From Thermoplasmatales archaeon SW_10_69_26 (GTDB taxonomy: Archaea > Thermoplasmatota > SW-10-69-26), in NCBI GenBank assembly GCA_003009755.1, contig PXUB01000035.1, positions 1 to 27,354 of the forward strand: a stretch of 27,354 nucleotides of DNA. Reading direction: 5' to 3'. Positions 7,122 to 22,650 of this stretch are shown one piece after another. The translations under genes and the position numbers were made by a program. The notes under the pieces are model-generated. The model saw only the letters and a program-made list of their open reading frames with translations. It made no database searches and was not told the DNA's origin. Positions within the stretch are counted from its first letter, which is position 1; each line of letters begins with the position of its first letter.

Positions 7122-8342
7122 CTAGCCCGCGAACGTCCAGACGTCCATGCCGCGCTCGCGGCCGACGCCGAAGGCCCAGCCGTGGTGGACCTGGACGTCG
7201 ACGACCTCGCCGACGGGGTCGTGGTCGACGACCTGGGGCGCGGTCACGTCGGCGAAGTCGATCGTGTAGGTGCCGCCGGAGAGGAACCCGACGACCATCT
7301 TGTCGCGGTCACCGACGATCTCGCCGAAGTGGGCGGTGCAGGAGCCGGTCTCGGCGCGCATCTCGCTGGCGGAGATCCAGCTTTGCGGGGTCGGCGCTTG
7401 CTCCTCGCTGACGTCGTAGAACCACAGGGCGCCGACGGGGTCGGTCGTCGTGCCGCCGGTGGCGGGGTTCTCGGCGCTGGCGCCGGCGCAGCCGTTGGCG
7501 GCGTCGCTGGCGGCGCCGGCGAGCTCGTCGCCGATGACGAGCGTGTCCCCGTCGTTGGCGGGGATCGCCCAGTGGTGGATGTTGATCGCCGGGTTGGCGA
7601 TCCGGGTGACGATCTCGGGCCGCTCGGGGTCGGCGATTTCCCAGATCTGGGTCTCCCGGACGCCGGCGCAGTAGGCCCGGTCGTCGGGCATGTGGAAGCT
7701 GATGTCGTGGCAGGTGAGGTCGTTGAACGTCCGCACGAGCTCGGGGTTGGCGGGGTCGCTGGCGTCGACGATGTCGACGCCGGGCGTGTCGACGGAGCGG
7801 GAGTTGTAGATAAGGTGCGTGCCGGGGACGACGGCGATGTTGTGGACGTTGCCGTCGTCGCCGCCGAGGACGTTGGCGACCTTCTCGGGGTTGGTGGGAT
7901 CGGTGACGTTGATGATGTCGATCCCGCTGCTCGTGGCGGCGTTGGCGACGAACGTGCGGCCGTCGTCGTAGTTGAGGACCCAGGGGTCGTGGCCGAACGT
8001 GTCGGCGACGTGGCCGAGGACCTCGGGTTGCATGGGGTCGGAGATGTCGACGGTGTAGAAGCCGGCGTTCCAGGCGGAGATGTAGGCCATCTCGCCCTGC
8101 ACGGCGATCTGGTAGGCGCTGTCCAGGCCCTCGTCGGGGCCCAGCGTGAGCTCGTGCTCGACGCCGGTGATCTCCCCGGGCAGCTCCCGGGCGAACGTGG
8201 GCTCGTCGGGCGACGTCTCGGGACCCTGCTCCTCGACGCTGGCCGTCTGGGCCTCGTCGAAGCCGATGCAGCCGGCCAGGGCCGGCGTGGCGAGGGTCAA
8301 GGCGATCGCCAGAGCCAACCAACGGCGAGCACGCGAGCTCAT
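7122..8342 (-). CDS. LVIVD-repeat beta-propeller lipoprotein, copy A
   Basis: Lipobox LAGC; repeated (V/I)D(I/V)SDP..PE units; VHN, CHD, HHW, CTAHFG. Confidence 0.85.
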   Translation of the reverse strand: MSSRARRWLALAIALTLATPALAGCIGFDEAQTASVEEQGPETSPDEPTFARELPGEITGVEHELTLGPDEGLDSAYQIAVQGEMAYISAWNAGFYTVDISDPMQPEVLGHVADTFGHDPWVLNYDDGRTFVANAATSSGIDIINVTDPTNPEKVANVLGGDDGNVHNIAVVPGTHLIYNSRSVDTPGVDIVDASDPANPELVRTFNDLTCHDISFHMPDDRAYCAGVRETQIWEIADPERPEIVTRIANPAINIHHWAIPANDGDTLVIGDELAGAASDAANGCAGASAENPATGGTTTDPVGALWFYDVSEEQAPTPQSWISASEMRAETGSCTAHFGEIVGDRDKMVVGFLSGGTYTIDFADVTAPQVVDHDPVGEVVDVQVHHGWAFGVGRERGMDVWTFAG

Positions 8343-8422
8343 CGTGCGAGCAGGCGTGGCAGGCCTTCAAAAGCGTTGCTGTCCGCGGGGTGGTCGGTCT
8401 CACCCGCACCGTCGGCTCTCCC

Positions 8423-8640
8423 GTGGGCCTTCACGCTCGTCCCTGGCTGTCCGCCGAGGCCTGGCTCCTCGACGAACCGGCCGGGGAGTGGATCTTGCTG
8501 GGTCGGCGCACGCCGGGAGCCGACGGACACCGGGTCGACGCTGGTCGAGAACGCGTCACGCTGGGGGACCAGGACCGGTTGCTCGTCACGATGGAGCCCG
8601 CCGAAGCCGACGCCGGCCGGTCGGGTCCCCCTCGGCGCCG
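8423..8640 (+). pseudogene. Possible gene remnant resembling an RskA-type (anti-sigma-K C-terminal) domain
   Basis: Translation AEAWLLDEPAGEWILLGR...DRLLVTMEPAEADAGRSG resembles the YExWL...LG...VTxEP...PSG pattern; no proper start or stop. Recognised by eye only. Confidence 0.3.
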
Positions 8641-8701
8641 TCGAAGCCAGCTCGCTGTTCGACGTGTCCACGCCCGCCCTCGCCCGCGAGGCCGCCCGTC
8701 G

Positions 8702-9892
8702 TCAGTCGCCAGTGGGCACGACGACGTCCAGGCCGCGCTCGGTGTCGCCGCTGAACAGGTATCCGTTGTGGTAGCGGGTCTCCCAGTTGTCGCCCACGGG
8801 CAGCGCGTCGTCGAGGATCTCGGGGTTGCGGACGTCGGCGAAGTCGACGAGCACGGAGCCGGCAGCCCGCCAGCCGACGACGATCTTGTCCTGGCCGGGC
8901 AGGATCTCGCCGAAGTGCGCCGTGCAGGGGGCCGGCGGCGTGTTGTCGGCCGGGACCGGCGGTGCCACCCAACTGATCGGGACCGGCGTGGTGGGGTCGG
9001 ACACGTCGTAGAACCAGATCGCGCCCACCGGGTCGCTGGTCGTGCGCTCGAGACCCGGCGTATCCACTCCGGCCAGGCAGCCGGCGGCCGCGTCGGTCGA
9101 GCCGGCGAACTCGTCGCCGATGATCAACGTCTCGCCGTCCTCGGTCACGGTCGCCCAGTGCTGGATCTGCATCGAAGGGTTGTGGATGCGGGAGACGATC
9201 TGGGGGTCGAGGGGATCGGTGATGTCCCAGATCTGCGTCTCAGCGTGGGCCGGGCAATACGCCGTCTCGGCCTCGGGGCCGAAGCTCACGTCGTGGCAGG
9301 CCAGCTGCTCGCGCGTGTCGACGACCTCGGGGTTGGCGGGGTCCGAGACGTCGACGATGTCGACGACCTGGTCGCCGGTGCTGCGGGCGCTGTAAACGAT
9401 GTCCGTGCCGGGGACCTGGCCGACGTTGTGGACGAGGGCGTCGGTGAGGGCCTCGCCCACGATCTCGGGGGTGCGGGGATCGGTGACGTCGGCGAACAGC
9501 ATGCCGTCGCCGTTGGTGGCCAGCACGGCGATCGTGCGGTTGTCCTGAAAGACGAGGTCGACGTCGCGGGTGTACCGGCCGGTGATGTTACCGAGGACCT
9601 GGGGGTCCTCGGGCGTGCTGACGTCGACGACGTGGAACCCGCTGTTCTGGCCGCTGACGTAGGCGTGGTCGCCGTGGAGGTCGAGCCCGGCGCCGGCCTC
9701 GACGTTCTCGACGTGGGCCAGCGGCTCGAGCCCGGTGACGTCCTCGGGCAGCGGGCGGGCCCAGTCCTCGCTGGCGTTGGCCTCGGAGGCGGCGTCGGCG
9801 GCCTCCTCGATCGGCTCCTCGCTCCCGAGGCAGCCGGCGGCGACCAGCGCCAGGCAGGCGAGCCCGATCCAGGCGAGCTGGGACCGATCCAT
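8702..9892 (-). CDS. LVIVD-repeat beta-propeller lipoprotein, copy B
   Basis: Lipobox AAGC; VVDVSTPEDP and IVDVSDPANP repeats; VHN, CHD, QHW, CTAHFG. Confidence 0.85.
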   Translation of the reverse strand: MDRSQLAWIGLACLALVAAGCLGSEEPIEEAADAASEANASEDWARPLPEDVTGLEPLAHVENVEAGAGLDLHGDHAYVSGQNSGFHVVDVSTPEDPQVLGNITGRYTRDVDLVFQDNRTIAVLATNGDGMLFADVTDPRTPEIVGEALTDALVHNVGQVPGTDIVYSARSTGDQVVDIVDVSDPANPEVVDTREQLACHDVSFGPEAETAYCPAHAETQIWDITDPLDPQIVSRIHNPSMQIQHWATVTEDGETLIIGDEFAGSTDAAAGCLAGVDTPGLERTTSDPVGAIWFYDVSDPTTPVPISWVAPPVPADNTPPAPCTAHFGEILPGQDKIVVGWRAAGSVLVDFADVRNPEILDDALPVGDNWETRYHNGYLFSGDTERGLDVVVPTGD

Positions 9893-9894
9893 CG

Positions 9895-11112
9895 CTAGCT
9901 CCCCGTGGGGACGAAGACGTCCATGCCGCGGTCGGTGTCACCGCTGAAGACGTACCCGTTGTGGTAGCGGGTCTCCCAGTTGTCGCCGACCGGGGTCACG
10001 TGGTCGACGAGCTCGGGCGCGGACGGATCGGAGAAGTCGACGACGTAGGTGCCGGCGGCCCGCCATCCGATCACCATCTTGTCCTGGTTGGGGAGGATCT
10101 CGCCGAAGTGCGCCGTGCAGGGCGTCGGCGGGACGTTGTTGGCGGGCAGCTCGGGCGCGACCCATCCGAGCGGGACCGGTTGGCTCTCGTCGCTGATGTC
10201 GTAGAACCAGACGGCCCCGTAGGGATCGGAGACGGTGTGGTCGTCGGTCGGGTTGTCGGCGGTCGCGTAGCAGCCGGCGGCGGCGTCGGTGCTGCCGCCG
10301 AACTCGTCGCCGATCACGAGCAGGTCGCCGCCGTTGGTGACCGTGGCCCAGTGGTGGACGTGCATGAACGGGTTGTAGATGCGGGTGAGTACGTCGGGGT
10401 CCTCGGGATCGGAGATGTCCCAGATCTGGGTTTCGCGGACGCCGGCGCAGTAGGCGCGGTCGTCCTCCGCGGAGAACGTGATGTCGTGGCAGGTGAGGTC
10501 GTTGAACGTCGCCACGTGCTCGGGGTCGTCCGGGTTGGAGGCGTTCACGATGTCGACGCCGGGCGTGTCCACCGACCGCGAGTTGTAGACGAGGTCCGTG
10601 CCGGGCACGACGTTGGCGTTGTGGACGTTGCCCTCGCCGCCGCCGAGCGCCTCGCCGACGACCTCGGGCTGGGTGGGCTCGGTCACGTCGATGAACACCA
10701 TCCCGCCTCCACTGGCGGCGGTGACGACGACGCTTCGGTTCCCGTCGTGGAGCATCTCGACGTCGCGCGTGAACTGGTCCTTGATCTCGCCGACGACCTC
10801 CGGCTCGTTCGGTGTGGTCAGGTCGACCACGTAGAACCCCGTGTTCTGGCCGCTGACGTAGGCGTAGTCGCCTTCGGTCCAGAGACCGCCGGCCGCTTCG
10901 ACGTCCTCGACCTGGGTCAGGTGCTCGATGCCGGTGACGTCGTCCGGCAACGGGCGGGCCCAGTCCTCGGCCTCGTCGGCGGCTTCGCTGTCGGGCGTGC
11001 TGGCGGTCTCGGCGCTTTGCCCTGCGTCACCGATGCAGCCGGCCAGGACGGGTGTGGTCAGCAGCAGAGCGAGCGCGATCGCGACCCCCGGAGCCGTGGG
11101 CTTGCCTCCCAT
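9895..11112 (-). CDS. LVIVD-repeat beta-propeller lipoprotein, copy C
   Basis: ATG at 11112 (MGGKPT...LAGC) with CTTTA about 30 nt upstream; same repeats and His motifs; stop codon 2 nt from the copy B start. Confidence 0.85.
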   Translation of the reverse strand: MGGKPTAPGVAIALALLLTTPVLAGCIGDAGQSAETASTPDSEAADEAEDWARPLPDDVTGIEHLTQVEDVEAAGGLWTEGDYAYVSGQNTGFYVVDLTTPNEPEVVGEIKDQFTRDVEMLHDGNRSVVVTAASGGGMVFIDVTEPTQPEVVGEALGGGEGNVHNANVVPGTDLVYNSRSVDTPGVDIVNASNPDDPEHVATFNDLTCHDITFSAEDDRAYCAGVRETQIWDISDPEDPDVLTRIYNPFMHVHHWATVTNGGDLLVIGDEFGGSTDAAAGCYATADNPTDDHTVSDPYGAVWFYDISDESQPVPLGWVAPELPANNVPPTPCTAHFGEILPNQDKMVIGWRAAGTYVVDFSDPSAPELVDHVTPVGDNWETRYHNGYVFSGDTDRGMDVFVPTGS

Positions 11113-11169
11113 GGTAGCGGGGAGCCGGCCTCGCAGGACTAAAGGTTTGTGGGGGACGCGGCGGGCGTG

Positions 11170-11270
11170 GAGGGCACAGAGGGGGTAGAGGACGCAGAGA
11201 GCCACCCACAGAGACACAGAGGACACGGAGAACACACAGAGAGGAAGGAAGGGCGATGGGAGGGGAAGAG
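11170..11270. repeat. Left arm of the ~100-bp inverted repeat around the GxxExxY gene (CACAGAG/CACGGAG 8-9-mer units)
   Basis: gagggcacagag...ccacagagacacagaggacacggagaacacacagagaggaagga...gaggggaagag aligns with the reverse complement of 11931-12031. Confidence 0.85.
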
Positions 11271-11290
11271 GGAGGTAGTTGGGGGAGAGA

Positions 11291-11871
11291 TCAACGGGCC
11301 AGTCGATGGAGGCCCTCGACCAGCGTCTGGCGGTGGAAGTTGACGATGAGACCGAGGGGGAACTCTCCCTTGCTGAGGTAGGTGAGCAGCTGGGCTCGAT
11401 GGACCGGTTGGACCTCGCTGACGGCTTTGATCTCGACGACGACCCGCCCCCCGACAAGCAGGTCGAGCCGGTAGGAGGCTGACAGCTGTTCGCCTCGATA
11501 GCGCAAGGGCGGGGTTCTGTAGCTGTCTCAGCCAGACGGAGTCTATTTGATCTCCAAGGCCTCTAGCGGCTATATCCGGCCCCTTCATCGCTTCAGCCGT
11601 CACGATCGCTTCGAGCGACAAAAGTCCGTGGTGGAGGGCCTTGTTGTCGCTAGTTCCTCTCCCAACTGAGACACGTTTAGAACCTCGGCGCAAGGGTAGG
11701 TGGACCTGGGACCGGCAGCCGATTCCCTCGTCGGTCGAGCTCCGCCGAGAGCGCCTCCTCGCAGGCGCGCTCGAGGAGCCCAGGCCCGAGGCGGTCGTGG
11801 ACCTCGACCGCTGCACCGATGACGTCGTCAGTGACCTCGCTGAGTTTCGCGGGCGGCTCCTCATCCACCAC
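11291..11871 (-). pseudogene. GxxExxY protein (predicted PD-(D/E)xK nuclease), disrupted
   Basis: N-half VIGAAVEVHDRLGPGLLERACEEAL; C-half YRLDLLVGGRVVVEIKAV...HRAQLLTYL...GLIVNF. One extra base in the C run at 11725-11727 and an insertion at 11510-11687; removing both restores ...GIGCRSQVHLPLRYRGEQL... Confidence 0.9.
11510..11687. mobile_element. 178-bp MITE (non-autonomous insertion)
   Basis: Perfect 9-bp direct repeat GCGCAAGGG at 11501-11509 and 11688-11696; 22-bp terminal inverted repeats matching at 17/22 (11510-11531 vs 11666-11687); lower GC than the flanks. Confidence 0.9.
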
Positions 11872-11930
11872 CGACGAGTTGCCCCTCCAGCTCTTGAAGG
11901 CTCTCCGGGAGCTCTACGCGCTCCCGTATG

Positions 11931-12031
11931 CTCTCCCCTCGATTGCCCCCTCCTTCCCTCTGTGCATTCTCTGTGCTCTCTGTGCCTCTGTGGTTGGCTT
12001 CTCTGTGCCCTCCGCGAGGCTCCGTGCCCTC
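11931..12031. repeat. Right arm of the ~100-bp inverted repeat around the GxxExxY gene
   Basis: ctctcccctc...tccttccctctgtgcattctctgtgctctctgtgcctctgtggttggcttctctgtgccctcc...ctccgtgccctc; inverted counterpart of 11170-11270. Confidence 0.85.
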
Positions 12032-13232
12032 ACAACCCACTGATGGGCGTCGGGATGAACGTGATCACGATCAACAGCAGCGTCGCGATGGCGAGGATGC
12101 TGCGTTTCTTGTCCAACGGCGTGACGCTGTTGAGCGTCGGCGGGTGCTTGGCGCCGATGAACAGGATCAAGATCGCGAACACGAGCCAGCCGCCGTACCC
12201 GGTGATCCACTGGTCGGGCGAGAACGGCGGGATGCCGAGCCCGAGCAGGATGAGGCCGCCGAGGGCGACGTAGGACAGCGTGCGGGCGTGCTCGTCGAGG
12301 AGCGCGCTGGCGACGTGGCCGCCGTCGAGCTGGCCGCTGGGGATCAGGTTGATGCCGGTGACGAGCAGACCGACCCAGCCGGCCATCGCCACGGGGTGGA
12401 TGATCGCGTCCCCGGGGATGGCGAAGGGCCAGGCCAGCGCGTCGTACAGCAACGGCGTACCGAGCATGACGGTACCGCCGGCGCCGGCGGTCGTGACGGG
12501 GTCCTGGCTCATCAAGAACCCCCCCAACAGGACGGTCGGGATGGCGACGACGAGCCCAGCGAGGGGTCCGCTGGCGCCGATGTCGAACAAGGCCTTCTTC
12601 GAGGGGATCGGCTCCCGCAACGAGATGAAGGCGCCCAGCGTCCCGATGTTGACGGCGAAGATCGGCGGTAACGGGATGAAGTAGGGGAACGAGGGCGTGA
12701 GGCCGTGCTTGCGGCCGGCGAGGTAGTGGCCGGACTCGTGCACGCCCAGGATGAGCATGAGCGGAAGCGCGAACTGCAGGAGGCCGCCGAGCAGGAAGCT
12801 GGTGCCGGTCAACGGCAGCAGCGCGCTCTGAGCGCCGTAGCACTCGTAGCAGAACCCGGGGTTCTGGTAGCCGAACACGGCGAGCGCACCGGCCAGCGTC
12901 GTCGTGACCCACGTCGCCAGGAACAGCGCCCAGTTCACCCATTCCCGTCGGTCGGGGCTGCGGGGCTGAGGGAAGACATTGAGGATGCGTTCGCCGCCCT
13001 CTTCACGGATCGAGGCGGCGTAGCCGTGGGTCTCGGCTTGCGCGAGCACGGCGTCGAAACGGTCCTCGATCTCGCCTTTCTCCTCGTGTACGAAGTAGGT
13101 GCCGATCGGACGGTCCTCGTGGGCTTCGTAGGGGGAGAAGTGCTCGCGGACGGCGTCCTGGATCTCCTCGGGCACACCCTTGTGCCGGGGGGCGTCGACG
13201 CGATCCTGGAGCCATTCGGGGGGAGTGGCCAC
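12030..13232 (-). CDS. Site-2 protease (M50 intramembrane metalloprotease)
   Basis: HESGH zinc motif, FDIGASGPLAG, NLIPSGQLDGGH; GTG start inferred from CTTTTCA about 26-30 nt upstream. Confidence 0.92.
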   Translation of the reverse strand: MATPPEWLQDRVDAPRHKGVPEEIQDAVREHFSPYEAHEDRPIGTYFVHEEKGEIEDRFDAVLAQAETHGYAASIREEGGERILNVFPQPRSPDRREWVNWALFLATWVTTTLAGALAVFGYQNPGFCYECYGAQSALLPLTGTSFLLGGLLQFALPLMLILGVHESGHYLAGRKHGLTPSFPYFIPLPPIFAVNIGTLGAFISLREPIPSKKALFDIGASGPLAGLVVAIPTVLLGGFLMSQDPVTTAGAGGTVMLGTPLLYDALAWPFAIPGDAIIHPVAMAGWVGLLVTGINLIPSGQLDGGHVASALLDEHARTLSYVALGGLILLGLGIPPFSPDQWITGYGGWLVFAILILFIGAKHPPTLNSVTPLDKKRSILAIATLLLIVITFIPTPISGL

Positions 13233-13408
13233 CGAGGCCGGCCACCCGCAGGCCCCGTGAAAAGCGTGTCGGCTCGGCAGGCGCTCGCCGCGACCCGACC
13301 GCCGGTGGGACATCCAACGCCACCCGACCGTCTCCGAGATAAGTGAGGTGGCTTGATCGCCAAGTTCACCGACGAACCGCCGGTTGCGGGTCGCGGGTCG
13401 GTCTCCGG

Positions 13409-13846
13409 CTAAAATGAGAACGGGTTCACAGGCTTGGCGAGACGGTCGAGGTCGCCGACAACGTCGAAGCCAGGCTCGAAGCTGTCGATGTAACGGATCT
13501 CCTGCCTGCGAGCCTGCACGACCTGCATCGCGTCGACAAGGGACAGGACGTCGATGCGACGGAAGGTGTCGCGACCGTGCTCCCAATCGGCCTTGACGTG
13601 GTTGGCTAGCTCGAAACTGGGGCTGGCTTCGAGGCGCGAGAGGAGGTCCTCGGCTTTGTGTGCTCCGAGGTCGCGTTGGACGCCGTTGATCGTCTCGACG
13701 AGAGCGACGCCGGGAACGACGAGCTGGGGAAGCTCACCTGCGTCGGTCCTCCTGACGATGGAAAGGCCGGTCTGGTGTCGAGCTCGCTCCGCCCGGTTTG
13801 CGGCAGCATAGAGTACCGTCGTATCCACCAGTGCCTGCTGTGCCAC
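13409..13846 (-). CDS. vapC: PIN-domain (VapC-type) toxin
   Basis: GTG after GGAGG; ALVDTTVLYAA, LVETIN, LSLVDA, SFEPGFD; C-terminal PVNPF as in haloarchaeal-type PIN proteins. Confidence 0.85.
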   Translation of the reverse strand: MAQQALVDTTVLYAAANRAERARHQTGLSIVRRTDAGELPQLVVPGVALVETINGVQRDLGAHKAEDLLSRLEASPSFELANHVKADWEHGRDTFRRIDVLSLVDAMQVVQARRQEIRYIDSFEPGFDVVGDLDRLAKPVNPFSF

Positions 13847-14183: not shown

Positions 14184-15890
14184 ATGTCGGAGGTCAAGGT
14201 CGCCTTGCTCGCCGTCGCGATGCTCACGATGGGTCTGTCCGGGTGCATCGGGACCGGCGAGGATCTCGAGGAGCAACGCGTCGACGACGTCGGGGAGGAC
14301 GCCGTCGACAGCACGAACGGATGGAGCACGCCGACCGAGCCGCGGCGGTACGAGATCCTGCCGGGCATCGAGGCGTCGTTCACCAGCTTCGACGACACGG
14401 AGATCTCGGTGGGCGTCTTCTTGCCCGACAAACCGGCGTGCGACTGGAACGCCAGCGAGCAGCCCGAGGAGTGCCAGCTGCCGGTCGTGATCGACGCCGG
14501 CCCCTACTGGGGTGACGGCGAGGAGGACAAAAGCTTCCGTCCACCGCTCGTCGAGTGGCTGGTGCCCCGCGGGTACGCCGTGCTGCACATGAGCGTGCGC
14601 GGTACCGGTGAATCCGGCGGCTGCATGGAGTTCATGAGCCAGGCCGAGCAGGCCGACGTCGACGAGACGATCACCTGGGCCGCCAAGCAGGCCTGGAGCA
14701 ACGGCAACGTCGGCATGATGGGCCGCAGCTACGACGGCACCACGCCCCTGATGGGCGCCGCCAGCGGCAACGAGAACCTGGAGACGATCGTCCCCATCAG
14801 CGGCGTGTTCAGCGTTCCCGACCTCATGTTCAAGAACGGCACCAGCGAGACCCGCGGCCCCATCATGCACAGCGTCGTCTACTGGGGCCTGTTCGGGATG
14901 GGCGCCATCTACGGTGCCGAGGCAGCCGACTTCCGCGCCGAGCACTGGGCCGAGCAAGCCTGCGAGGAGGTCGTCGTCGGCCAAGCCCAAGGCGGCTACG
15001 CCACCGCGACCGGCGACGCCAGCGACGAGTACTGGCAGGTGCGCGACTTCACGGAACCGATCCTCGAGAACTACAACGGGTCCGTGTGGGTCGTCCACGG
15101 GATGCAGGACTGGAACGTGAATCCCAGCCAGGCGATCCCGTTCTACCAGGCGATGGAGGAGGATCCGGACATCGAGACGAAGGCCTGGTTCGGCCAGTGG
15201 GACCACGCCTACCCCGACCGCGTCGACGAGCACCGCAACGTCCGCTGGGACTGGGCCGACAGGACCCTGGCCTGGTTCGACCACTACCTCAAGGAGGACG
15301 AGCAGGCGCCCACGCCCGATCTGACCGTCGAGGTCGAGGACTCCCTGTACGTGTGGCGCACCGAGGACACCTACCCGCCCGAGGACGCCGAGCCGACCAC
15401 GCACGAGACCGACCTCAGCGGGACGGTGGCCGCCAACAACGCGGTGTCGTGGACCAGCGAACCGCTGGACGAGAACGTGCGCGTGGCGGGCCTACCGAGC
15501 GTGGAGGTCACGGCCACCCCGACGACGACCGAGGGCGGCTGGGTGTTCGCCGAGCTGTACGACGTCTACCCCGACGGCGTCAGCATGCGCGTCGGCTGGG
15601 GCGCCCTGAACCTGGCCTACCACGAAGGCGGCAACACCGACCCGGCCACGCTCACGCCCGGCCAACCGATCGAGACCGAGATCACGTTCGAACCGATGGA
15701 CGCCCACATCGGCGAGGACCACCGCCTGCGGTTGGTGCTCCACAAGGACGGCGTCGAGGACATCCCCCAAAGCCCCGACCCGTCGCCGGTCACCGTCGAC
15801 GACGTGAACCTCGTCATGCCGCAGATCGACCGCGACGAGACCCTGGCCGAGCCGACCCCGCCCGGGCTGAACGACATGGAGGTCCGCTGA
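14184..15890 (+). CDS. CocE/NonD-family (S15, X-Pro dipeptidyl-peptidase-like) serine hydrolase lipoprotein, copy 1
   Basis: Lipobox LSGC; GPY, RGTGESGG, WSNGNVGMMGRSYDG nucleophile elbow, HGMQDWNV, GQWDH. Confidence 0.9.
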   Translation: MSEVKVALLAVAMLTMGLSGCIGTGEDLEEQRVDDVGEDAVDSTNGWSTPTEPRRYEILPGIEASFTSFDDTEISVGVFLPDKPACDWNASEQPEECQLPVVIDAGPYWGDGEEDKSFRPPLVEWLVPRGYAVLHMSVRGTGESGGCMEFMSQAEQADVDETITWAAKQAWSNGNVGMMGRSYDGTTPLMGAASGNENLETIVPISGVFSVPDLMFKNGTSETRGPIMHSVVYWGLFGMGAIYGAEAADFRAEHWAEQACEEVVVGQAQGGYATATGDASDEYWQVRDFTEPILENYNGSVWVVHGMQDWNVNPSQAIPFYQAMEEDPDIETKAWFGQWDHAYPDRVDEHRNVRWDWADRTLAWFDHYLKEDEQAPTPDLTVEVEDSLYVWRTEDTYPPEDAEPTTHETDLSGTVAANNAVSWTSEPLDENVRVAGLPSVEVTATPTTTEGGWVFAELYDVYPDGVSMRVGWGALNLAYHEGGNTDPATLTPGQPIETEITFEPMDAHIGEDHRLRLVLHKDGVEDIPQSPDPSPVTVDDVNLVMPQIDRDETLAEPTPPGLNDMEVR

Positions 15891-15891
15891 C

Positions 15892-17697
15892 GTGCGCGCT
15901 CTCGCCCTCGGGCTCGCCGTCACGATGCTGACGATGGGCATGGCCGGGTGCGTGGGCTCCAGCGAGAACCTCGCGGAGGCCAGCGAGCCCACGGCCGACG
16001 ACGACGAGGACCTGAACACGACGCGCGGCTGGAGCTCGCCCAGCACGCCCCAGACGTACGACGTGCTCGAACCGGTGCACACCTACGTCGAGAGCGTCGA
16101 CGGCGTCGAGGTCTCGATCGCGTACTGGCTGCCGGACAAGGACGGCTGCGACTGGAACGCGACCGAGCTGCCCGAGGACTGCCGGCTGCCGACCGTGCTC
16201 GAGGGCGGCCCCTACTTCCTGGACGGGATCGACGAGGAGGGCTTCCGCCCGCCGAAGGTCCAGTGGTTCGCCACGCGCGGGTACGCTGTCGTCGACATGA
16301 GCCTGCGCGGCACCGGCGAGTCCGGCGGCTGCTACGAGTTCAAGAACCCCAAGGACGTCGACGACGTCGACCATGTCGTCGACTGGATCGCCGAGCAGGC
16401 CTGGAGCGACGGCGACGTCGGCATGATCGGCCGCAGCTACGACGGCACGGCCGCCTGGGCCGGCGCCGCCAGCGGCAACGAGAACCTGGAGACGATCGTC
16501 CCCATCAGCGGCGCGCTCGACGGCCCCGACCTCTACTACAAGAACGGGACCAGCGAGACGCGCGGCTTCGCCCAGCCGGCGTTCTACTACCTGTACGCGT
16601 TCGGGCTCGTCAGCGACGATCCGACCTACCGCGTGCCCGATTACATCAACACCCTGTGCCCGCAGGCCGCCGCCGAGGACTGGACCCGCGGACCGAAGGC
16701 CGGCATCACCGGGGACGCCTCCAGCGACTACTGGCAGTCGCGGGACATCAGCGACGAGATCCTCGACAAGTACGACGGCTCGGCTTGGGTCATCCACGGG
16801 ATGCAGGACTACAACGTGAACCCGAGCCAGGTCGTCCCCTTCACGCACGAGATGCGCCACGAAGGCATCGAGACGCTGGCCTGGCTCGGCCAGTGGGACC
16901 ACGCCTACCCCGACCGCGTCGACGAGCACCGCAACATCCGCTGGGACTGGGCCGATCGCCTGCTCGAGTGGTTCGACCACTACCTCAAGGAGGAGGGCGA
17001 GGAACCGTTCCTCGGCGTCGAGGTCGAGGACTCGTTGTACGTCTGGCGCACCGAGGAGGCCTATCCGCCCCACGACGCCGAGTGGCGGGGCTTCGAGCTC
17101 GGCGCCGACGGCGAGCTGACCGAGCCCGGCGAGGCCAGCTCGGGCCAGTTCGCGCTCGCCGGTCCGCCGGCGGGCGCGGCGGCGGACTGGAACGCGGGCG
17201 AGGCCGGCTCGCAGATCACGTTCACGTCCGATGCGCTCGCCGACGACATCCGCATCGCCGGTCTGCCGCGGCTGCACGTCGACGTGACGCCCACCACAAC
17301 CGAGGGCGGCTGGCTGTTCGCCGAGCTGTACGACGTCTACCCCGACGGCCAGTCGCTTTTCTTGGGCTGGGCCGCGATGGACCTGCGCTACCACGACGGG
17401 GGCAACACGGACCCGGCCACGCTCACCCCCGGCGAACCGGTCACCGCGAAGATGCAGTTCGAGCCGATGGACGCCCACGTCGCCGAGGGCCACCAGCTGC
17501 GGCTCGTCGTGCACAAGAACGGCGTCGCCGACATCCCCCAGAGCCCGAGCCCCGAGCCCAACGTGCTCAACTTCGGTGACGAGGCCAGCGTGCTCGAGCT
17601 GCCGACCGTGGAGCGCGACCTCGCGCTGCAGGGCGACGGCGAGCCCCGGCAACGCGACCCGGCACCGACGGCGCCGCCCGCCGACGTGACCCGGTGA
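15892..17697 (+). CDS. CocE/NonD-family (S15) serine hydrolase lipoprotein, copy 2
   Basis: Lipobox MAGC; RGTGESGG, GMIGRSYDG, HGMQDYNV, GQWDH; starts 1 nt after the copy 1 stop. Confidence 0.9.
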   Translation: MRALALGLAVTMLTMGMAGCVGSSENLAEASEPTADDDEDLNTTRGWSSPSTPQTYDVLEPVHTYVESVDGVEVSIAYWLPDKDGCDWNATELPEDCRLPTVLEGGPYFLDGIDEEGFRPPKVQWFATRGYAVVDMSLRGTGESGGCYEFKNPKDVDDVDHVVDWIAEQAWSDGDVGMIGRSYDGTAAWAGAASGNENLETIVPISGALDGPDLYYKNGTSETRGFAQPAFYYLYAFGLVSDDPTYRVPDYINTLCPQAAAEDWTRGPKAGITGDASSDYWQSRDISDEILDKYDGSAWVIHGMQDYNVNPSQVVPFTHEMRHEGIETLAWLGQWDHAYPDRVDEHRNIRWDWADRLLEWFDHYLKEEGEEPFLGVEVEDSLYVWRTEEAYPPHDAEWRGFELGADGELTEPGEASSGQFALAGPPAGAAADWNAGEAGSQITFTSDALADDIRIAGLPRLHVDVTPTTTEGGWLFAELYDVYPDGQSLFLGWAAMDLRYHDGGNTDPATLTPGEPVTAKMQFEPMDAHVAEGHQLRLVVHKNGVADIPQSPSPEPNVLNFGDEASVLELPTVERDLALQGDGEPRQRDPAPTAPPADVTR

Positions 17698-19418: not shown

Positions 19419-19453
19419 CTCTGCGCCTCCGTGGCTCCGTGTCTCTGTGTGGT
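19419..19453. repeat. Solo arm of the CACAGAG/CACGGAG repeat family
   Basis: ctctgcgc ctccgtgg ctccgtgt ctctgtgt ggt: same unit as the arms around the GxxExxY gene. Confidence 0.7.
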
Positions 19454-21718: not shown

Positions 21719-21803
21719 CGGCCTGCCCCGCCATCGGGTTCGTCGTTCAAGAGTCCACGGGCAAGCTCAGCCCGCGCTGTAAGGATAAGAAACGGGGGGG
21801 GAC

Positions 21804-21918
21804 CACCAAGTACGCGAAGGGACGCCAGGGCACAAAGGGGAGCAGCTGCCGTGACAACGCCGCCCGGCGGCGAGTCACAGGCCCTTCGTGGCCTTGGCGA
21901 TCCTTCGTGTCCTTCGCG
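21804..21918. repeat. Inverted pair of CACGAAGG-type 9-mer arrays forming a long hairpin (REPIN-like)
   Basis: 21804-21839 vs the reverse complement of 21882-21918 match at 28/37 with one gap; the spacer holds an inner gtgac...gtcac stem. Confidence 0.65.
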
Positions 21919-22650
21919 ATGCGAGCGCCCGCCTCCTTCGGTCAACTCGCCCCGATCGCGATCCCCGGCCTCCTGCTCGTCGGCGCGCTCGGGATGCTCG
22001 TCATGGCGACCCCGATCGGCGGCATGATCTTCGGCGGGCCCTGGATCTTCGTGCTGCTCAGCGTGGTCGCCGGCACGCTGCTGGCCGGCTACCTCGTGAC
22101 CGCGCTCGCCCAGGCGTGGGCCGACCGCCGCGCCGGCTGGGCGCTGCCGCCGGCCGCGCACCTGGCCGTCGGCGACCGCGCAATCAGGCTGCCGGCCCGC
22201 GCCGTCGAACGAGCCGGCTTCGTCACCCAACAGGACGAGGTCCGCGTGCCCGCCCACGCTGCCTACGCGCTCGAGCGCTCGCTCGCCGGCGCCTGGGGCG
22301 TGCCCGAGGACCACTGGTCGCGGACCGCGTTCCTGCAGCGGCTGACCGTCGCGCTCGTCCTCTCCGTCGTCGCCGCGGTTGTCTTCCTCGTCGGCGACGC
22401 CCTCGCCGGCGCCGGCATCTCCCGCGGCATGCGCGAGCACGCCGGCACGGTCGTCATCGCCGGCACGCTCACCGGCTGGCTCGTCGCCACCTCCGTCGAA
22501 CGCAGCCGCCAGGAGGCCGCGGTCGACCTGCTGGCCGACGCCCGCGCGATGGTCATGGACCGCGGCGAGCACCGCGAGGTCCGCCGCGTCCTCGACGACA
22601 TCGGCATCGAGCTCGACAGCGGCGAGGCCGCCGTCGGCGTGCCCCCCTGA
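21919..22650 (+). CDS. Hypothetical membrane protein (about 4 TM segments)
   Basis: Two pairs of hydrophobic helices, host-like codon usage; alternative GTG start at 21907. Confidence 0.7.
   Translation: MRAPASFGQLAPIAIPGLLLVGALGMLVMATPIGGMIFGGPWIFVLLSVVAGTLLAGYLVTALAQAWADRRAGWALPPAAHLAVGDRAIRLPARAVERAGFVTQQDEVRVPAHAAYALERSLAGAWGVPEDHWSRTAFLQRLTVALVLSVVAAVVFLVGDALAGAGISRGMREHAGTVVIAGTLTGWLVATSVERSRQEAAVDLLADARAMVMDRGEHREVRRVLDDIGIELDSGEAAVGVPP

Follow-up and report, generated by a model that had tools for sequence, protein, structure and literature searches.

Within a 27,354-bp stretch of DNA from Thermoplasmatales archaeon SW_10_69_26 (contig PXUB01000035.1 of assembly GCA_003009755.1; hereafter the window), a degenerate GxxExxY gene lies between two inverted arrays of short repeats. 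In our estimate, with a probability of about 55%, the region represents the decayed remains of a small selfish mobile nuclease cassette whose working ends are the inverted arms. Such a cassette would consist of a ~130-codon PD-(D/E)xK gene bounded by inverted arrays of 8-nt units of the form C-R-C-V-R-A-G plus 1 to 3 nt. Arms and gene seem to be mobilised, maintained, and lost as a single entity, and the gene-plus-arms package has the appearance of a small mobile DNA of a type not described before. The window is the entire contig C35 of a 2.8-Mb genome (G000; 69% G+C, 95% complete), which is archaeal, as its ribosomal protein S8e indicates; the metagenome runs containing this stretch are labelled halite metagenome.

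The arms were recovered by a repeat finder, by alignment, and by duplex energy, in agreement with a preliminary description of this DNA, made from its letters, which had reported inverted arms of 8-9-mer units around the GxxExxY gene. The repeat finder returned inverted arms at 11200-11264 and 11935-11999 (65 nt, 74% complementary) and additional outer inverted matches at 11166-11181 and 12001-12016. Local alignment of positions 11165-11295 with the reverse complement of 11925-12035 extended over ~102 nt, as expected if the arms align over their whole length, and its score of 50 exceeded every one of 300 shuffles (15.9 ± 2.8, maximum 24). Segment 11931-12031 is an imperfect reverse complement of 11170-11290, and the reported composition of tandem CACAGAG/CACGGAG units is reflected in seven CA[CG][AG]GAG-type units per arm. 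The predicted arm duplex has an energy of -156.8 kcal/mol; 200 shuffles gave -87.1 ± 6.5, and pairing with the reversed arm gave -107.5. Chance or low complexity as the source of the arms was ruled out by these shuffle energies together with the pseudo-gene control given below.

The preliminary description had placed a lone GxxExxY gene between the arms. The family assignment stands; the gene is not intact, however, and is instead a pseudogene split into two open reading frames (ORFs) on the minus strand, both of which match PF13366 and TIGR04256 in profile searches. The C-terminal fragment scores 69.5 bits (cut-off 35) and the N-terminal fragment 33.5, just below the cut-off. Between them lies an insertion resembling a miniature inverted-repeat transposable element (MITE); its inverted ends measure 22 nt, a 9-bp target duplication flanks it (11501-11509 = 11688-11696), and the genome holds four further copies at 75 to 97% identity. 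In the metagenome runs X2 and X4, one contig each carries the cassette without the MITE, passing directly from 11500 to 11688 with an ambiguity of 9 nt at the joint; this identifies 11510-11687 as inserted DNA that duplicated 9 bp of its target. Base 11723 is additionally absent from the X4 contig, which restores the frame, and the window copy read through according to the X4 allele has no stops, reaches 137.9 bits over family profile positions 2 to 116, and contains the catalytic D...ExK pattern. The X2 contig has a 41-nt deletion (11338-11378) in the cassette. The name motif of the window copy is G-L-L-E-R-A-C, not G-x-x-E-x-x-Y; the Y is invariant in 60 of 60 aligned relatives, and its replacement by C is read as decay of this copy. 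Judged from its sequence, the window copy is decaying, by MITE insertion, 1-nt frameshift, and the Y-to-C change in the name motif.

Population variants were sought in contigs from four metagenome runs, compared over window positions 10800-12400. One X3 contig (839 nt, depth 6.35) joins 10801-11173 to 12016-12272, omitting the cassette, and differs from the window at six positions on one side of the joint and at one on the other. As the ambiguity at this joint is just 1 nt, there is no target-site duplication, and by this standard it is not a classical terminal inverted repeat transposon or MITE. Both breakpoints fall at the stem base of the arms, staggered by ~7 nt, and a single 16-nt outer unit remains beside the stop codon of the adjacent site-2 protease (S2P) gene. 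The joint is unlikely to be an assembly artefact, because the arms share no long exact words. A search for an empty site between S2P and the neighbouring LVIVD-repeat lipoprotein gene had been suggested, and such a site is present both in this near-identical strain and in G001, G003, and G004, which belong to the same family and in which S2P is followed by a short spacer and an LVIVD homologue, with neither arms nor gene. No LVIVD homologue was found downstream of S2P in G002 and G005. Since the X3 allele keeps an arm unit that the relatives lack, it is probably a loss and not a never-occupied site.

Inverted 8-mer arms had also been expected at GxxExxY genes elsewhere, and this expectation was borne out. 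The genome of the window has four GxxExxY loci, with arms at three of them; intact genes occur on contigs C36 and C30, each between inverted arrays that represent a second subtype (A), and the gene on C20 lies at a contig end with an array on its upstream side only. Among 41 examined relatives, 14 carry a GxxExxY gene, with inverted arrays at nearly every locus and locus-specific units (CACGGAG, CACAGGG, CACAAAG, GCAGAGG, CGCGAAG, GCCAAGG, CACAGAT, and others). A wider scan of one genome per species, with a 5-row alignment as the query, yielded at least 592 GxxExxY relatives, the best 80 of which include members of the Chloroflexota, Acidobacteriota, Planctomycetota, Verrucomicrobiota, Pseudomonadota, Bacteroidota, and Cyanobacteriota, a Methanothrix, and others. 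The flank census covered 101 loci with at least 200 nt on both sides, 27 from 14 genomes of the archaeal phylum and 74 from other phyla, with more than 12 bacterial phyla represented. At least two units were present on both sides at 77 of the 101 loci, at least three at 51, and at least one arm at 96; the identical detector applied to 150 pseudo-gene positions in these loci gave 12, 0, and 57, respectively. The unit CACAGAG occurred 58 times in upstream flanks and 58 times in reverse-complemented downstream flanks, compared with 1.0 expected from far flanks.

Arm orientation and unit choice are likewise regular. When 3-unit arrays were scored at 74 loci, the purine array came first at 45, with the reverse order at 2, both at 1, partial arrangements at 18, and none at 8. 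In the consensus, the arm end reads (T)TCACC or AACC, after which come three or four C-R-C-V-R-A-G units at intervals of 1 to 3 nt. Within each cassette the arms match each other, and the unit varies between cassettes. Many bacterial genomes hold seven to nine diverged GxxExxY copies; in a complete Prolixibacteraceae genome each of the nine genes has its own unit, and just three pairs are similar (66 to 73% nucleotide identity). At 60 loci with clear neighbours, the upstream gene was co-oriented in 40 and on the opposite strand in 20, and the downstream gene was co-oriented in 44. A dependence of the cassettes on read-through was considered and dropped, as this neighbour orientation is ordinary.

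The presence of the gene and the abundance of arrays go together across genomes. A GxxExxY gene is carried by 18 of 151 genomes of the phylum, and at least five array-pattern matches were found in 13 of these 18 carriers compared with 2 of the 133 non-carriers; the carriers are clustered in few families, so that the co-occurrences are not independent events, and one array family spread as a MITE. Among these 151 genomes, arrays are rarer where the gene is missing; equal frequency would have spoken against the proposed link. Of the five carriers with low counts, G039, G068, and G154 escape the pattern because their arm units end in T or A. The two non-carriers are G008, with seven matches that appear by eye to be coding repeats, and G030 (89% complete), with nine. 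The latter has nine true CGCAAAG-type arrays and no GxxExxY match at an E value of ≤1e-5, and is either an array-only genome or one in which the gene was not assembled.

The idea that the arm motif tracks the GxxExxY subclade held in part. A quick tree was built from 70 proteins, retained if both arms had at least two units, the gene had no stops, and the unit ended in A or C followed by G; 34 of 104 loci were excluded. The unit label required 43 changes on this tree, compared with 48.1 ± 1.6 after shuffling (7 of 1,000 shuffles reached 43), and unit position 2 required 13, compared with 20.2 (0 of 1,000 shuffles reached it). The unit therefore clusters on the protein tree, although the host phylum does so as well. 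As far as such comparisons indicate, the cassette evolves as a unit.

Gene-less copies ("empty arms") with cassette-type arms, a further element of the proposal, were also found. The flanks of several loci contain complete gene-less hairpins consisting of an array, a 15- to 50-nt loop, and an inverted array, and dispersed gene-less hairpins in G006 and G019 share their arms with one GxxExxY cassette in each genome. Two related repeats within the window had been cited in support of the proposal, and they fared differently: the one at 19419 fits as a solo arm of the second subtype, whereas the one at 21804 belongs to a 28-copy family with MITE ends. The GxxExxY gene on C20 was rejected as a direct autonomous partner of that family, the match being just 37 nt at 81%. 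No GxxExxY remnants were found at an E value of ≤1 near 33 solo or paired arms. Two arm pairs of ~275 bp in the genome of the window (C36:36924-37201 and C49:9431-9704) enclose no recognisable gene remnant (hmmsearch, E ≤ 1).

A Nostoc genome (G041) holds 75 strict arrays and 3 GxxExxY gene matches. Many of its gene-less hairpins (L163-L167) have reverse chirality, with a pyrimidine array, GGTTCG, a short loop, CGAACC, and a purine array, such that what are normally the outer arm ends adjoin the loop. These hairpins may be related to the tandem heptamer repeats long known in heterocystous cyanobacteria.

The GxxExxY protein itself is predicted to be a nuclease. Its fragments match only PF13366 (PDDEXK_3) and TIGR04256 in Pfam and NCBIfam, and among relatives D62 and E72 never vary, with K74 conserved in at least 90%. 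The structure model (predicted local distance difference test score, 96.7) is consistent with a PD-(D/E)xK fold carrying the catalytic motif. In comparisons with this model, the best structural matches were all PD-(D/E)xK nucleases with no clear winner, including Cas4 (Z 7.8), restriction-enzyme domains, NucS, Hjc (Z 6.7), and a splicing endonuclease (Z 5.5). A sequence search against solved structures returned Cas4 only (E 0.09), and assignment to a defence-system or phage family was rejected, as the matches were just weak and Cas4-like. A homodimer prediction scored 0.00, gave no verdict, and was used neither way. A 2012 superfamily survey lists the role of PF13366/TIGR04256 as "Unknown" (PMC3424549).

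If the region is a cassette of this kind, the chance that the GxxExxY protein is the enzyme acting on the arms is, in our judgement, close to even. The arms would then serve as cis-acting ends, which the nuclease would bind and cut, probably as hairpin, cruciform, or duplex arrays, and host repair would join the ends after cutting. Gene-less hairpins would be non-autonomous relatives that arose by internal deletion. Through its arm stem, the cassette RNA may also be excised from host transcripts or kept apart from them, as happens with 23S rRNA intervening sequences.

Several observations weigh against the mobile-cassette reading. No genome was seen to contain two near-identical copies with the gene, so that recent transposition of a full cassette is undocumented, and the X3 allele could be a palindrome-stimulated deletion and not an enzymatic excision. 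The genome of the window contains 56 strict arrays, 28 of which belong to one family that includes window positions 21804-21920 (and, e.g., C1:84831-84991). A strict end pattern recovered 20 of the copies, which are 160 to 164 bp long with their own terminal inverted repeats; those inspected by eye have ordinary MITE ends and 7- to 9-bp target duplications, and the family was therefore spread by another transposase, as an ordinary MITE. Subtype-A arm pairs enclose ordinary genes, namely, one for a PKD-domain lipoprotein (215 aa) and one for a 3-hydroxyacyl-CoA dehydrogenase (526 aa), and the two arms on C29 are 95% alike across 40 nt. The 15 arrays of G003 barely exceed the 11 of its reversed-pattern control. 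On the protein tree, host phylum required 39 changes compared with 46.5 for shuffles, and the association between protein columns and unit letters is modest (maximum z of 5.1 in 432 tests, with phylogeny uncorrected). Finally, genes of the unrelated, non-nuclease four-helix-bundle family TIGR02436 have matching flank architecture, so that arms need not be nuclease sites. At 19 loci of this family (L169-L188; G041, G042, G043, G045, and G006), inverted repeats were detected in the flanks, the best score per locus ranging from 16 to 86 and reaching at least 30 in 13 of the 19; tandem 7- to 9-mers were visible by eye, with units unlike those of the GxxExxY cassettes.

This shared architecture leads to an explanation at the RNA level, in which the arms pair into a stem that is cut by a host double-strand RNase, releasing the cassette from the transcripts of the host and rendering its insertion harmless, and the nuclease is unrelated to the arms. 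We regard this as rather unlikely. Strong predicted arm pairing, the position of the window cassette between two same-strand genes, and the occurrence of four-helix-bundle genes with inverted tandem-repeat flanks outside rRNA are all in its favour, as is the Coxiella intervening sequence, with its terminal stem, heptamers, and RNase III cuts (PMC4990558). However, a domain search found no Ribonuclease_3 domain in the 95%-complete host genome, so that any RNA processing of arm stems here needs another enzyme, and the upstream gene lies on the opposite strand at one-third of the loci with clear neighbours (20/60). A known RNA family as the identity of the arms or cassette was rejected, since none of 80 GxxExxY loci, nor the window, gave an Rfam match; none of them, accordingly, sits in rRNA. 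A stem alone would also leave unexplained both the presence or absence of the cassette in DNA and the conservation of the C-R-C-V-R-A-G unit across phyla together with the gene.

Array hairpins might instead be independent host or MITE-type repeats, with GxxExxY a free-standing homing endonuclease gene that takes them as its target and inserts in their loops. Hairpins do exceed genes (75 arrays and 3 genes in Nostoc, about 56 and 4 in the genome of the window), one array family does spread as an ordinary MITE, and intact, broken, and empty alleles coexist as they would in a homing cycle. Against this, the X3 allele lacks both arms and has one 16-nt unit left, and so is not an empty hairpin; the empty sites of relatives have no arms, and arrays are rare in genomes without the gene, as noted above. 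On this evidence we consider the homing explanation improbable. Still further down the scale, and in our estimate very improbable, is an immobile cassette whose arms serve in autoregulation or in inversion of the gene. Invertible segments do have this layout, a gene flanked by inverted repeats, and the arms overlie the 5' and 3' untranslated regions; however, no recombinase is encoded, the contigs compared over 10800-12400 contain no strand-changing joints (although contigs drop rare forms), and presence or absence and the wide horizontal spread across phyla would go unexplained.

Compared with known systems, the cassette is best described as closest to intervening sequences in anatomy and to REPIN/RAYT elements in logic, and as a member of neither. 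The preliminary description had likened it to the system of repetitive extragenic palindromes (REPs) and REP-associated tyrosine transposases (RAYTs). This likeness holds for the arms, the co-occurrence, the gene-less copies, and the empty sites; it fails in the missing HUH transposase and the MITE-like 21804 family, and the matching architecture of the unrelated four-helix-bundle family is a further point against a simple REP/RAYT reading. As described for REPIN/RAYT (PMC3116915), a repeat bounds the gene in inverted copies and is also scattered through the genome in hairpin-forming pairs, the repeat and the gene tend to be found in the same genomes, and paralogues in one genome differ in repeat type. 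Unlike RAYTs, the GxxExxY protein has about 115 to 130 aa and a predicted PD-(D/E)xK fold and is not an HUH tyrosine transposase; the repeats are arrays of 8-nt units and not single REP palindromes, and many bacterial genomes carry the several diverged gene copies described above.

Intervening sequences of 23S rRNA are the anatomically closest known elements, because TIGR02436 shares the architecture: their ORFs come from the four-helix-bundle (S23p, TIGR02436) family, e.g., in Coxiella burnetii and Leptospira. In both kinds of element, a small ORF of unknown role lies within complementary termini that pair into a long stem. The terminal stem of the Coxiella intervening sequence measures 28 bp, its tandem GACAGAT heptamers are close to the CACAGAT/CACAGAG units of GxxExxY cassettes, and RNase III cuts at the first repeat; the ORF of the element decays, as does the one in the window, and the 2016 study calls the origin and mobility of intervening sequences unclear (PMC4990558). 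In contrast, the ORF of the GxxExxY cassettes encodes a putative PD-(D/E)xK nuclease, the cassettes are intergenic and not in rRNA, the host of the window has no detectable RNase III, and dispersed gene-less copies exist.

With free-standing homing endonuclease genes, the cassette shares a small intergenic nuclease gene and filled, decayed, and empty alleles in one population; to our knowledge, such genes do not carry long inverted repeat arms or leave gene-less repeat copies. Gain and loss without target duplication (≤1 nt) presumably resembles IS200/IS605-type elements, and we take a dependence on secondary structure at the ends to be plausible here also. Unlike these elements, the cassette has neither HUH TnpA nor TnpB, and its ends are long complementary arrays and not two separate subterminal hairpins. 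No description of GxxExxY genes with repeat arms was found in the literature, subscription journals aside, the nearest being the Coxiella study (PMC4990558), and no occurrence of the arm motif strings was found in literature text. A published mention of "GxxExxY" concerns RT classification and not repeats.

A broader and more doubtful proposal, which we offer tentatively, is that GxxExxY cassettes, S23p cassettes, and 23S rRNA intervening sequences together make up a single, very large class of bacterial and archaeal mobile elements that has gone unrecognised. Inverted tandem arrays of 7- to 9-nt units around a small gene would form a hairpin or cruciform, cut at the base of its stem by a structure- and sequence-specific nuclease (GxxExxY where present), with excision and insertion without target duplication and with gene-less hairpins as non-autonomous members. 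The shared anatomy in the four-helix-bundle family ties the GxxExxY cassettes to the intervening sequences, and the link between repeat arms and gene gives the widespread PF13366/TIGR04256 family a concrete, testable substrate. Because filled, decayed, and empty alleles form a natural series within one population, cassette gain and loss can be measured directly, and a minimal nuclease directed at a short, modular repeat could have practical interest.

Table 1. Coordinates of the cassette, its neighbours, and related repeats (window positions unless a contig of the same genome, G000, is named)
Feature	Position	Strand	Remarks
Upstream arm in gene sense	11931..12031	-	CACRGAG-type units (+ strand CTCYGTG), two outer GAGGGCACRGAG units
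Downstream arm in gene sense	11170..11290	+	Purine-rich on + strand, CACRGAG units
Outermost arm unit	12016..12031	-	Directly follows S2P stop codon; retained in cassette-free allele
N-terminal GxxExxY fragment	11677..11871	-	Profile 2-39, E 4e-8; motif G..E..C, not G..E..Y
C-terminal GxxExxY fragment	11291..11506	-	Profile 50-116, E 3e-19; holds D...ExK catalytic motif
MITE-like insertion splitting GxxExxY gene	11510..11687		178 bp; inverted ends 11510-11531 / 11666-11687
Other copies of 178-bp MITE	C43:32842-33037, C32:101586-101763, C2:48189-48368, C32:64102-64274		In G000
Extra base (frameshift)	11723	-	One base more than X4 allele; omission restores frame
Segment missing from one X3 contig	11174..12015		842 bp, both arms and gene; joint 11173->12016
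S2P (Peptidase_M50) gene	12030..13586	-	Stop codon abuts cassette
LVIVD-repeat lipoprotein gene	9895..11112	-	Downstream of cassette, start near 11112
Solo arm, subtype A	19419..19451	-	Begins CACACAGAG, four 8-nt units; subtype flanks C36/C30 genes
MITE-family copy, hairpin core 21804-21920	21777..21920		One terminal 20 nt missing; CRCGAAG-type 8-9-mers
Arm pairs around ordinary genes	C29:20653-22151 (L001), C40:11421-13510 (L002)		In G000

The surroundings of the cassette agree with its earlier placement between the S2P stop codon and the LVIVD promoter, as the M50 ORF ends at 12030 and the LVIVD ORF begins near 11112. On the minus strand, the gene order is Peptidase_M50 site-2 protease, GxxExxY gene, and LVIVD-repeat lipoprotein (Table 1). 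Three neighbouring paralogous genes for LVIVD/choice-of-anchor-B-like lipoproteins occupy window positions 7125-11112 on the minus strand, and two neighbouring CocE/NonD hydrolase genes lie at 14184-17694.

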